From NCBI GenBank assembly GCA_965237955.1, contig OZ250169.1:480001-544000 (forward strand): a stretch of DNA of 64,000 bases, read 5' to 3'. Shown piece after piece: positions 1-63,935 of the stretch (position 1 is the first letter of the stretch; every line of letters starts with the position of its first letter). The DNA is from Candidatus Marinacidobacterales bacterium (GTDB taxonomy: Bacteria > Acidobacteriota > Vicinamibacteria > Marinacidobacterales > SMYC01). Under the pieces are notes generated by a model. The model had not been told where the DNA came from and searched no databases. It was given only the letters and a program-made list of their open reading frames with translations. The position numbers and the translations under genes are program-made.

Positions 1-62
1 GGCTCTGCTCACTTCTGGGCAAGGACGTTCCGAAGGTTGGGACACGACGTCGTCCTGCTCCC
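1..62 (+). pseudogene. IS110-family transposase fragment, cut by the element end at 61
   Basis: Frame 1 reads GSAHFWARTFRRLGHDVVLLP, typical of the IS110 DEDD N-terminal domain; it runs into the repeat CCCGTCCTGTGCC. Confidence 0.6.
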
Positions 63-1492
63 CGTCCTGTGCCAAAACTCGGCCCTTTTGAAATAGGCCA
101 TAAATCAGCAACTTAGTGTCTGTGTTTGCGACCGGGCCAAGGGCCGTGGGCTTTACAATCGTCTTGGGCGGGCGGGTCGTCACCATGCAGATGACCACCT
201 AGTCGAGAGCGAATATCGAAGCATGTTCCTGAAGCTGTTTCCACGCTACGCCGGTCGAGCCCGCCGAGGGGCTACCGTCGCCGGCGACCATCTACGCGGC
301 ACGGCAGTAGTAGTTGAGAATGCCCCCAAGTCGCTCTCGCGACACGATGAGGCCAGTGTCATTCGCGCTTGCCGGCAGAGGTGTGAGGAGCTCGTTGCCG
401 AGACCTTGGTGGTTCCGTTCTGTGTGATAGTGCACTACGTATTCGGTTACCGCTGTGCGCAGGTGTCGCTCACTGAGAGGTACGAAGCGGTCGAGACACT
501 CTCGACGTATGGAGAGAACGAATCTTTCCGCGTATGCGTTCAGATTCGGACTATTGGCGGGAAGGCGGAGGGGCTTCACGCCTGAATCTCTCAACAGCCC
601 ACGTACCGCCTCGGTGAATAGTGGGTCTCGGTCGTGGATGAGGTATCGCTTGCCAAGGAGGAAACCATCCCACATGTCAGTGAGGTTTCTTGCCACCTGC
701 TTCATCCACTCCCCGTTTGGGTCCGACGTTATCCCACCGATGCACACGCAGCGAGTGGCGATATCGATGACAAACAGGACATGGTAGCGGACGAGCCCGA
801 ACGGGTTCACAACCTCGACGGTGAACAGGTCTGTCGCAGCGATGGCGCCCCAATGAGCCTTGATGAAGGTGCTCCACGACATGCTCTTGACCCGCTCCGG
901 GGCAGGCGCGATACCTTGGTTGGCGAGGACCCTCTTGATGGTGTTGCGTCCGAGTTCATGTCCGAGGTTCTTGAGTACGCCCCGCAGGCGCGTATATCCC
1001 CACGTCGGGTTCTCCCGCGCCATGCGTACCATGAGCTCACGGATGTCCTTCGCCGTGGGAGGTCTGCCTGGGCTCCGGTTCTTGCTGCCATCGTACTTGG
1101 CTGCGATGAGGCAGCGGTACCAGCGTAGAAGCGTAGCGGGCGTGGCAACCGACGCAATCTGGGCCAGCGCCTCGCGGCCCAAAGCTTGGGCCTTGACCGC
1201 GAGCCTGCGCCGGTCGTCGTCCGAGAGACTGAGACGCTTGCCCCGAAGCCCGGCTCGGAGCACACGGTTCTCCTCTTGCTGGTAGTCGATCACATCCTGC
1301 TGCTGGCGGTTGACCCAGCCAGCTAGAACGAGCAGTAGGAATTGCACGTGGTACGTCATCATGGACCTGAAGATAACACCCTCGGGCCAGACGATTGTAA
1401 AGCCTACGGCCCTTGGCCCCGGCGCAAACACAGACACTAAGCTGCTGATTTATGGCCTATTTCAAGAGGGCCGAGTTTTGGCACAGGACGGG
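61..1492 (-). mobile_element. rve-integrase IS-like element (family A) with ~100-bp terminal inverted repeats
   Basis: 61-~163 (CCCGTCCTGTGCCAAAACTCGGCCC...ACAATCGTC) is the near-perfect reverse complement of ~1391-1492; it encloses a single transposase ORF. Confidence 0.85.
292..1362 (-). CDS. Integrase core domain (rve, DDE) transposase
   Basis: HTH block [17 protein letters not shown] motifs [21 protein letters not shown]-terminal RLGGILNYY. Start taken at MMTYHV (1362) because the longer ORF-track start lies inside the TIR. Confidence 0.9.
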
Positions 1493-1701
1493 ATCGCGAA
1501 ACACTGACGCCGCGTGATCGCCGGGGCGCTAGTTCCCGCGAATGCTGCGATAACTGAAAAACGCGCGGATCAAATCGGAATATATGGGTTCCTGACAGGT
1601 GCGGGCGCACGTCGGCGAGTTCTGTGCTAGCCTATGCTGGCGCGGCGCCCACGAAGCAGGCTGGCTAGTTGTTGTCGGCGTCGCCCAACAAGGAGGTTTC
1701 G

Positions 1702-2583
1702 ATGACTCGACGACGTAGTTGGAACACGGTGTGCGCAATGTTGATGCCGACGTTGCTGGTCACCGCGGCGTGTGGCGACACCGACAGTCCCACCGGACCG
1801 AGCCAGAAGAGTCTCGGGTGGTCGTTCAACGGACTCCAGAATCTGGGTCCTGGGTTCGTCTACGAGGGCTGGATCCTGGTGAACGGCAATCCCGTCTCGA
1901 CGGGCACGTTCACCGTCGGTGACGATGGCAGCTTGAGTCAACGCAACTTTTCCGTCAATGAGGCCACGCTCTCGTCTGCGACGAAGTTCGTCCTGACCAT
2001 CGAGCCGTCGCCAGATTCCGACCCCGCGCCGTCGGCGACGAAGTATCTCGCTGGTGACTTCGCTGGAAACAATGCAGCGCTTTCTGTGGCGGACGCTACA
2101 GCGCTGGGCACCACCTTCGCTTCCGCGTCCGGGAGCTTCATCTTGGAATCACCCTCCACTGGTGTAACGCGTGACTACGCGTCCGGTATCTGGTGGCTCG
2201 ACCCTGCTGCTGGTCCGGGCGCGTCGCTGGTGTTGCCGGCGTTGCCGGCGGGCTGGATCTACGAGGGCTGGGTGGTCGGCCCCGAAGGCCCGGTGTCGAC
2301 GGGCCGATTCACTCAGGTGATGGGTGCCGACTCGGACGCGGGCGGACCGACGGCCGGTCGGAGAAGCACGCCGCCATTCCCAGGGCAGGACTTCATCATG
2401 CCACCGGTTTCGCTGATCGGCTATCAGGCCGTCGTGTCGATCGAACCAGATCCGGACGACAGTCCTGGACCCTTCACGTTGAAGCCGCTGGTGGACATGA
2501 ACATTCAAGACGTTGGGCCGGGCGTCCTCCAGCGCATGGCCAACATGGCGACCGGCTTCCCAACAGGGACCGCTACCCGCTGA
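1702..2583 (+). CDS. Lipoprotein with duplicated YEGW domain (often annotated anti-sigma/RskA-like)
   Basis: RBS AGGAGG at 1691-1696; signal peptide with lipobox TAAC; two internal repeats YEGW..V.G.PVSTG.F and TIEP.PD. Confidence 0.75.
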   Translation: MTRRRSWNTVCAMLMPTLLVTAACGDTDSPTGPSQKSLGWSFNGLQNLGPGFVYEGWILVNGNPVSTGTFTVGDDGSLSQRNFSVNEATLSSATKFVLTIEPSPDSDPAPSATKYLAGDFAGNNAALSVADATALGTTFASASGSFILESPSTGVTRDYASGIWWLDPAAGPGASLVLPALPAGWIYEGWVVGPEGPVSTGRFTQVMGADSDAGGPTAGRRSTPPFPGQDFIMPPVSLIGYQAVVSIEPDPDDSPGPFTLKPLVDMNIQDVGPGVLQRMANMATGFPTGTATR

Positions 2584-2764
2584 TCTGCGTGTTGCGCGCC
2601 GGACGTCAATCCGAGGCTGGCTCACCCACAAGGAAGTTAGACTGAACGCAAGGAGCTTCAGGATCAAGTCGAAGGAATTCAAGAGAGGATTGGACAACTC
2701 GATGACGTCAGTCGGCTCCTCTGGCAGACGCGCGAACGACCGCGGCTCCTCGCTGTCGCGTTAG

Positions 2765-2961
2765 GCGCTCTGGAAAGTTCTCGATGCGCCGCCCGTTATC
2801 AGGGACAAGAGCTACGCCGGCCCGATAGGTCCCGTCTTCCCAGTACCGCCTGAACTCGAAGAACGGAGCCACGTCGGCCTCGACTTGATACGTGTTCTCC
2901 CGGATCGTGAATGCCTTATTCCCGCGCCTGACGGCGGCCTGACCGAAGTGCGCTACCAGCG
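2765..2961 (-). pseudogene. Internal fragment of a CdnE-like CD-NTase (CBASS nucleotidyltransferase)
   Basis: ALVAHFGQAAVRRGNKAFTIRENTYQVEADVAPFFEFRRY...GVALVPDNGRRIENFP fits the CdnE-clade pattern; cut by the element end at 2962. Confidence 0.65.
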
Positions 2962-62685: not shown

Positions 62686-62700
62686 GAGAATGGGCTTGAC

Positions 62701-62952
62701 TCAGATATCCTTGACCGCATCCGCACCGAAAGTCAGGACGAGTCCGAGAAGGGGCGCTGGTTCGAGCAGTTGTTCATGCGCATTGCGCTTCAACAACCTT
62801 GAATTTGAGCTCAACGGGATCTGGCGCCGGCCCGACTGGCCCGAGCGTGAGGTGTTGACTGGCCGAGACACTGGAATAGACTTCGTCGCACGGTGGACCA
62901 CAGGCGAGCGGGTCGCCATCCAGTGCAAGTGCTACGAGGATCGCTGTACTCT
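62701..62952 (+). pseudogene. Type ISP R-M N-terminal (Mrr-like nuclease) remnant
   Basis: ILDRIR...EKGRWFEQL / IW..DW...DTGIDFVA...AIQCKCY; frameshifted and cut both sides. Confidence 0.7.
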
Positions 62953-63814
62953 TTCGTGGATGAGGTATCGCTTGCCAAGGAGGAAACCATCCCACATGTC
63001 AGTGAGGTTTCTTGCCACCTGCTTCATCCACTCCCCGTTGGGGTCCGACGTTATCCCACCGATGCACACGCAGCGAGTGGCGATATCGATGACAAACAGG
63101 ACATGGTAGCGGACGAGCCCGAACGGGTTCACAACCTCGACGGTGAACAGGTCTGTCGCAGCGATGGCGCCCCAATGAGCCTTGATGAAGGTGCTCCACG
63201 ACATGCTCCTGCCCCGCTCCGGCGCAGGAGCGATACCGTGCTCGGCGAGGATCCTCTTGATAGTGTTGCGTCCGAGTTCATGTCCTAGGTTCTTGAGTGC
63301 GCCTCGCAGGCGCGTATATCCCCACGTCGGGTTCTCCCGCGCCACGCGCACAATGAGCTCACGGATGTCCTTCGCCGTCGGAGGCCGGCCTGGGCTCCGG
63401 TTCTTGCTGCCATCGTACTTGGCTGCGATGAGGTGGCGGCACCAGCGCAGAAGCGTAGCGGGTGTGGCAACGGACGCAATCTGGGCCAGCGCCTCGCGGC
63501 CCAAAGCCTGGGCCTTGACCGCGAGCCTGCGCCGGTCGTCGTCCGAGAGCCTGAGACGCTTGCCCCGAAGCCCGGCTCGGAGCACACGGTTCTCCTCTTG
63601 CTGGTAGTCGATCACATCCTGCTGCTGGCGGTTGACCCAGCCAGCTAGAACGAGCAGTAGGAATTGCACGTGGTACGTCATCATGGACCTGAAGATAACA
63701 CCCTCGGGCCAGACGATTGTAAAGCCTACGGCCCTTGGCCCCGGCGCAAACACAGACACTAAGCTGCTGATTTATGGCCTATTTCAAAAGGGCCGAGTTT
63801 TGGCACAGGACGGG
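62953..63814 (-). mobile_element. Family-A element copy 2, transposase 3'-truncated (CDS from 63684)
   Basis: Highly similar to ~632-1492; breaks after IH of IHDRD. Confidence 0.9.
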
Positions 63815-63865
63815 TTCCGACCTGTGTTTCGGGGTTTCCAGCCGAGACCGGATAGCACCAGACTG

Positions 63866-63935
63866 CCCGTCGTGTCCGAAAATACGAACGGAGCCCGAAA
63901 GCTCGAATCCTAGAGGCGTTCTCGAAATTCGCAGA
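63866..63935 (+). repeat. Family-B-like element end
   Basis: Collinear with 45770-45840. Confidence 0.75.

Follow-up and report, generated by a model that had tools for sequence, protein, structure and literature searches.

One-sided target use in an apparently unnamed family of insertion sequences from a Candidatus Marinacidobacterales genome

We examined the terminal repeats that recur in a 64,000-nt stretch of DNA from a Candidatus Marinacidobacterales bacterium (contig OZ250169.1, positions 480,001-544,000), which we call the window; the 8.13-Mb genome to which it belongs is labelled G000. These repeats, sorted here into families A, B, E and F, are the ends of a large insertion sequence (IS) family that matches no named family model and is apparently unnamed. 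Families A and B use their target one-sidedly, and it is this one-sidedness, not the absence of a target duplication, that distinguishes them and that we regard as the key finding. On the sequence evidence, we give slightly better than even chances to the reading that the A or B transposase joins each end separately to a GG-type site, the second end being joined elsewhere.

The accepted view of DDE transposases is that they insert both ends at the same target site, with a constant stagger. If our reading is right, a natural family with uncoupled joins would represent a new reaction mode for these enzymes, would supply a mechanism, open to testing, for long target repeats of variable length, and would account for the way in which some genomes assemble mosaic islands; more generally, separate end joining would delete or duplicate neighbouring DNA and so reshuffle gene islands. 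The claim lends itself to direct testing, since the system consists of a single small protein and short ends.

An insertion sequence family with CGT ends

Motif matches in the window numbered 10 for A and 7 for B, against 0.00 and 0.02 expected from 100 shuffles. All 17 ends listed in an initial annotation of the window were located, the positions given there marking the outer CC, with the terminal base 2 nt further inward (except at 4070). A genome-wide search, as that annotation had suggested, yielded 487 A, 205 B, 105 F and 60 E ends, of which the window's 17 are a small share; the window is ordinary for its genome, not exceptional. There are 22 complete A elements across the genome, and B has a transposase of its own, represented by 8 long open reading frames (ORFs) that are 53% identical to A. 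Short derivatives are numerous (A-F of 309 bp, A-A of 317 bp, B-B of 129 bp and others) and have differing flanks on both sides. Because these non-autonomous derivatives occur with many different flanks, we infer that complete copies mobilise them in trans.

Motifs built without regard to the terminus were preceded by CGT at 460 of 475 A ends and 103 of 110 B ends. When 154 distinct A junctions were compared with end-free copies of the same sites, identity was 0.88-0.95 at positions -5 to -1 (0.90 at -2 and 0.88 at -1) and fell to 0.38 at +1. This drop places the start of the element at CGT and assigns the adjacent CC to target DNA. The true terminus of A and B is therefore 5'-CGT, and that of E and F is 5'-TGT. 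The end-free copies rule out the CC as element- or donor-derived bases, in agreement with the earlier view of CC/GG as a target preference, and comparison with intact copies of cut sites excludes the internal TGT as the true A or B end. The GG at 1491, which had been taken to belong to the target interrupted at 61/62, is not the continuation of that target.

CC is the commonest flank of A ends and not the sole one (361 of 487, each a joint to GG). The full A target motif is G-A-C-C-C / M-G-T, with the joint between the last C and the M; it is near-palindromic about -1, and the lost side of the joint is also biased (+2 G in 66%, +3 T in 60%). Complete A elements in relatives had CGT...ACG ends in 34 of 37 cases, and distant relatives ended in CGT, TGT or TGC (at the 12 of 30 Streptomyces loci with clear repeats), with TG also seen. 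The CG terminus is thus a variant of one lineage, a detail rather than the main finding.

The A transposase is encoded by a single continuous ORF that carries both a helix-turn-helix (HTH) domain and the core, with no orfA/orfB frameshift layout. Its triad, counted from position 1362, is D178, D244 and E279; among 36 homologues both aspartates are invariant and the glutamate is present in at least 90%, with a D-E spacing of 35, that is, DD(35)E. The predicted structure had a pLDDT of 92.5, and its top folds were IstA, Mos1 and the HIV intasome and retroviral integrases, at 11-15% identity; a sequence search for a solved structure of the A transposase found none. As judged from these motifs and folds, the enzymes are DDE/RNase H transposases with an integrase-like core. 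Two parts of the model lie outside the core, an N-terminal helix of 36 residues and a conserved pair of C-terminal strands; they are candidates for dimerisation and target reading.

The best NCBIfam match was IS481 (NF033577), to which A scored 93 and E 84 bits, below the cut-off of 224; scores to IS3 (NF033516, cut-off 160 bits) were 74 for A and 80 for E, compared with 302 for the window's own IS3. An IS1634/IS1549-type, IS4-related large transposase gave no Pfam or NCBIfam match. The previously proposed rve-type DDE family with 3'-CG termini is thus upheld, in that the CGT ends are confirmed and no NCBIfam family fits. The E transposase is 33% identical to that of A. In a tree of 61 cores, which contains no ISfinder or IS1202 references, the 31 rows of the family formed one clade (100/100) apart from 30 IS481-like and IS3-like rows; cores were cut with the family's own profile, and 11 of 72 scored ORFs that gave no usable core were dropped.

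The family is large, and annotation has left it unnamed. The A element was matched in 15 of 40 relatives, with full-length copies about 97% identical in several genera of two families, and its closest named records are Ca. Marinacidobacterales metagenome-assembled genomes. The family profile was positive in 10 of 150 further genomes from the phylum, and tblastn placed the family in 98 plasmids, 44 from Streptomyces and 39 from Leptospira. It comprises 1,961 representatives at E 1e-30 or better; look-alikes in the atlas were mainly unnamed Planctomycetota clusters, and public labels of relatives read "integrase core domain-containing protein", "putative transposase" or "transposase InsO family protein". 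We found no account of the family in the main texts of the open literature, and ISfinder may hold members under another label.

Target use by families A and B

To compare the two sides of the target, we predicted the partner flank from the empty site and scored it against the real flanks at staggers (k) from -50 to +50. No stagger fitted A (own flank 3.19 bits, best -2.82 bits, recovered fraction 0.30, 189 targets) or B (recovered fraction 0.37, 56 targets). Controls in the same genome did show a stagger: k=9 for an element with a DDE_Tnp_1_5 transposase that we take to be IS903-like (0.98), k=8 for IS6 (0.74) and k=3 for IS3 (0.50). We found 24 A/B hot spots struck by 65 ends, with the same side kept, and an end on the opposite side at just 1 of the 24.

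Filled and empty sites, a comparison suggested earlier, settled the exact terminus and disclosed no short target duplication for A or B. A duplication of at least 3 bp flanked 0 of 24 complete A elements, 2 of 26 A minis (1.9 expected) and 0 of 13 B minis, and among 37 complete A elements in relatives its level equalled that of shuffled pairs. For 79 of 183 inward-facing end pairs, further copies of both flanks exist elsewhere; in no case did the two map to a single site less than 37 nt apart. The other half of the target resumed directly behind the element at 8 of 28 IS3 ends, compared with 0 of 217 A ends (own element); the sole A exception is a pair separated by 33 kb, at which 3 bp are missing. 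In one Streptomyces case (locus L104) the two flanks match different plasmids.

Several further searches for the missing partner gave nothing. Empty sites in the same genome were found for 0 of 23 units (22 complete A and 1 F-E unit); genome-wide pairing of ends by shared target gave 164 pairs and no dominant offset; the other target half resumed within 60 kb inside 7 and outside 8 of 217 ends, which is no signal; and the flank recurred within 10 kb inside 11 and outside 10 of 217. Empty orthologs of four further core sites in five relatives were not informative, and no joint precisely skipping the element appeared in contigs of four runs, which is no evidence since contigs drop rare forms.

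The absence of a duplication is not special here on its own, because the controls lose partners too. Partner junctions were found for 4 of 72 IS903-like and 0 of 16 IS6 copies. The IS903-like element (1087 bp, the family of window positions 19211-20065) has 83 near-full copies and a symmetric 9-bp logo, and it seldom keeps its duplication, which indicates that flank loss is rampant in this genome. A and B might accordingly be ordinary coupled, replicative DDE elements with a stagger of about 3 bp, whose partner junctions were later lost or swapped by adjacent deletion and recombination, which the text of PMC11708052 names as frequent causes of missing duplications. One B pair is compatible with k=3, and the near-palindrome of the A target about -1 would suit such a stagger. 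We nevertheless think this explanation unlikely. Loss or scrambling of flanks leaves the target logo symmetric, as in the controls, whereas the A and B logos are asymmetric; a partner junction of A at k=0-4 would mostly show the dinucleotide CG, CC or AC, whereas the joints are mostly to GG; and the 88-bp repeat described below requires two separate sites.

We also considered whether the element might be inserted at breaks or rearrangement junctions that already exist, with no cut of its own in the target. Elements with unrelated flanks, or with a copy of one segment on each side, would thereby be accounted for, and such joining is put forward in PMC11708052 for IS481 and IS5 copies in the middle of duplications and deletions. 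The joints, in contrast, are sequence-biased on both sides, the lost side included, and they recur at hot spots; together these observations point to an enzyme that chooses its target, and we hold joining at pre-existing breaks to be highly improbable.

One insertion bears directly on separate joining. A B-bounded unit of 2843 bp in the core of the genome (G000 2545797-2548639, equal to L243:2797-5639) has on each side a copy of an 88-bp stretch of unique DNA; this direct repeat starts and stops exactly at the two B ends, each site fitting the B preference. The repeat copies the end of a SurA-like gene, which itself stays intact, and in the relative G006 the segment is single-copy with both flanks contiguous. 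Between internal B ends, the unit contains a nucleoside-transporter (Gate) gene, a captured passenger unrelated to defence. Other repeats bounded by ends were of 6 bp (locus L292), of 572 bp at an E element inside another E, and of 869 bp at an A-bounded unit of 14.8 kb, the latter two in multi-copy targets. The 572-bp case, at 691-693 kb, at first looked like two tandem one-ended duplications of E but is better read as a single insertion.

Relatives on Leptospira plasmids have a different layout. The homologue there scores 228 bits on the family profile, and no inverted-repeat pair was found around it in 5 loci. A site about 220 nt behind the transposase gene is the point where plasmids diverge, and all 11 end-like sites in four plasmid regions, a small sample in which two regions have one site only, face the same direction as that site. 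GG follows 5 of 10 sites, and a single plasmid carries 7 of the sites, interspersed with small genes, some of them for immunity proteins. A second copy of the transposase there has a direct site on either side and is joined at a GG immediately ahead of the gene. At L211:6700-12500 (NZ_CP092169.1), and also at L208-L210, the transposase stands behind a gene for a protein with an AraC-type HTH, followed by direct-repeat single ends between small genes, among them genes for immunity proteins and a polymorphic-toxin domain, a layout like that of a cassette array. Such a layout would be the expected product of a single end attacking its own strand upstream.

We propose that the transposase nicks one end, whose 3'-OH would join a preferred GG-type site on one target strand, and that the second end would attach in a reaction of its own at a different place. 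With a variable distance between these two positions, an insertion would give a deletion or a long direct repeat that replication or repair may complete. A resident end might attack again in cis, trimming its neighbours and leaving solo ends, while complete copies would mobilise short derivatives in trans. Mostly destructive events would restrict the family to dispensable islands, which are home to defence genes too, and selection would halt trimming at useful genes. A Leptospira relative with one kind of end may have built its direct-repeat arrays of small genes by the single-end reaction. The broader form of this proposal, in which the family has dropped two-end coupling and become a one-ended, site-preferring recombinase that shapes megabase mosaic islands and the integron-like cassette arrays of Leptospira, we offer as a tentative and rather doubtful extension.

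A number of observations weigh against separate joining. F fits a symmetric 3-bp stagger (recovered fraction 0.82), and the best k for E is also 3 (0.43); 4 of 16 complete E elements have a 3-bp match, compared with 1.4 expected (p 0.034), one of these four lying at an A-end target with flanks that, read by eye, do not come from a single site. Uncoupling may therefore hold for A and B only. The controls, as described, are likewise mostly without partner junctions. A test for deletions in cis gave no excess on the outer same strand (39, compared with 45, 41 and 24, of 244), and flanks were co-linear at 3 kb in 6 of 28 testable units, with 4.6 in shuffled pairs. Only the 88-bp repeat lies in unique DNA; the 572- and 869-bp repeats could be two separate cuts in two copies of the target. 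No further long repeats were found in 150 end pairs of relatives, in 25 distant loci or in 40 additional loci, in which ends were reliably found in about half. Finally, 469 of the 487 A ends fall in four zones that make up 38.5% of the genome, but these zones were delimited from the A counts themselves, and IS6 (29 of 32 copies) and IS110 (17 of 18) are as confined to them as A. Confinement is weaker for the IS903-like element (67 of 116) and IS3 (45 of 64).

IS3 circle junctions place the ends 2-4 bp apart. Among 233 outward-facing A-A pairs in which we sought such a junction, the shortest spacers were 24, 25 and 27 nt (G000:C1:326432, 7838746 and 7854559), and the 25-nt joint was also present in run X1. 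This minimum is possibly the minimum reach of the complex.

Defence genes and other features of the window

In the initial annotation, orphan ends delete, capture and shuffle defence cassettes in trans, which would make them a network specialised in such cargo. The window is indeed a defence island, and the end-rich zones hold restriction, Cas and PtuAB genes, whereas PADLOC matches in the core (7 of 71 sampled ORFs, from 136) are all generic, being kinase, Hsp70-like or methylase; the 14.8-kb A-bounded unit, moreover, contains an AAA_21 and DUF4276 pair. Among low-copy ORFs in 20 zone segments, called with a simple gene caller of our own, PADLOC matches (1e-15) numbered 7 of 59 near an end (no more than 250 bp) and 11 of 62 far from one (at least 900 bp; Fisher p 0.45), so the enrichment of defence genes beside ends that had been anticipated did not appear. 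Counted by the side of the end that they face, gene sides were outer in 66 cases and inner in 19, contrary to the idea of cargo inside the ends, in a count that is biased since element remnants partly fill the inner side. Recurrent units are mainly empty minis and a recombinase module, and the core insertion carries a transporter gene. A network dedicated to defence is, in our judgement, very unlikely: the family occurs in the same islands as defence genes without being positioned at them, and no special link to defence was found.

Features of the window are listed in Table 1. As previously stated, it has one complete A transposase, the second A copy being partial. The end at 13651/13653, formerly assigned as the left end of E, belongs to family F. 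The ends do mark truncations: 18 of 19 intact copies of the IS110 element cut at 62 run on identically, and the cut in a CRISPR spacer is likewise confirmed. A cut CD-NTase had also been reported, but none was found in the window, whether by Pfam and PADLOC searches of a set of ORFs and flank frames or with a motif scan; the gene cut at 46779 is a TIR_2 fragment. The EcsC fusion gene had been considered cargo. Because the B end at 20195 closes the element to its left and the A end at 22402 opens the one to its right, the gene lies between outward-facing ends and is flank, not passenger. EcsC/PDC-S29 is at its N-terminus, and residues 501-606 are weakly Brig1-like (E 1e-4, far below the cut-off).

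Table 1. Coordinates of the main features in the window
Feature	Position	Strand	Remarks
IS110 fragment	1..62	.	cut by left A end; other half not behind element
Complete family-A element	63..1490	-	1428 bp, 5'-CGT...ACG-3', inverted repeats ~102-141 nt, no target duplication
A transposase	292..1362	-	356 aa from ATG 1362, open from GTG 1437; rve_3 + HTH
B end	2964..2978	+	element to right
B end	4056..4070	-	element to left; flank has 5 intact copies elsewhere
Solo A end	7160..7241	-	82 nt
Family F end, TGT terminus	13653..13672	+	separate from E
Complete family-E element	13805..15150	+	1346 bp, TGT...ACA, transposase 13924-14973
Solo A end	15388..15421	+	34 nt; then B end at 15430, E-type end at 15590
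B end	15430..15444	+	
488-bp unit	16793..17280	.	lies between short A ends of 25 and 35 nt that face inward
B end	20101..20195	-	element to left; joint 3 nt from stop codon of EcsC gene
EcsC / PDC-S29-like gene	20199..22280	-	on outer side of both neighbouring ends
Solo A end	22402..22520	+	119 nt, interrupted by IS3 element
CRISPR array	35777..40295	+	A end cuts inside spacer; longer genomic duplicate cut by another A end at later spacer
Solo A end	40296..40337	+	42 nt
A-variant end + DUF2924 + serine recombinase module	42167..45490	+	diverges from A at nt 54
B-related end	45772..45981	+	~210 nt
TIR_2 gene fragment	45985..46779	-	start cut by E end at 46780
Second complete E element	46780..48125	-	1346 bp, 100% identical to first; flanks from different loci
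B end	50756..50808	-	53 nt
Partial A element	62954..63812	-	859 nt, truncated transposase
B downstream-type end	63868..63988	+	121 nt

The genome carries two copies of a 24-kb segment containing the type I-G CRISPR-Cas locus (window 15924-40191 and G000:C1:136621-160875). The two arrays have 61 and 70 exact repeats, and A ends cut each at a different spacer. The DUF2924 and serine recombinase module has 32 genome matches of at least 1.5 kb at 94-99% identity, with a fixed start and a variable far boundary; that it landed in the 309-bp A-F mini is unsupported, only 54 nt being in common. Also present are an intact PDC-M02A/B candidate defence pair (DUF4365 and partner, 48344-49980) and a type I restriction subunit R with a C-terminal Schlafen/AlbA_2 domain (56230-59772).

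Comparison with known systems

The best-matching NCBIfam family is IS481, with which A shares a single ORF and an rve-type DD(35)E core; the TGT...ACA ends of E and F resemble those of IS481-related elements as described in PMC10045372. A differs in its score far below the cut-off, its separate clade and the CGT ends that it has in common with B. IS481 elements duplicate their target, by 2-15 bp and mostly 6 bp according to the same source, whereas A and B show none, and 4 of 16 complete E elements have a 3-bp match.

The family shares HTH_21 and rve_3 domains and TG...CA-like ends with IS3, whose pathway begins with single-end strand transfer. It differs from IS3 in its low score and one ORF, and in that the IS3 control keeps a 3-bp duplication with both target halves in place. 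Adjacent deletions are known for IS3, as noted in PMC11708052.

Variable target repeats are a possible further likeness to known elements. IS1549/IS1634 elements have variable direct repeats of 8-514 bp, for which no mechanism had been put forward as of 2008 (PMC2266710); the present family has repeats of 6, 88, 572 and 869 bp. The enzymes of IS1549/IS1634 are IS4-related, however, and in the present family most flanks are unrelated and long repeats seldom occur. Replicative IS6 and IS903 elements lead to the same outcome, islands full of ends with unrelated flanks, but their logos are palindromic about a fixed stagger of 8 or 9 bp.

The recombinase module, with one fixed end and a variable far boundary, resembles the one-ended mobilisers IS91 and ISEcp1, and the direct-repeat sites between small genes in Leptospira plasmids resemble integron-like cassette arrays in their layout. 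IS91 uses an HUH enzyme, ISEcp1 an IS1380-type DDE transposase and integrons a tyrosine recombinase, all of which differ from the enzyme described here.

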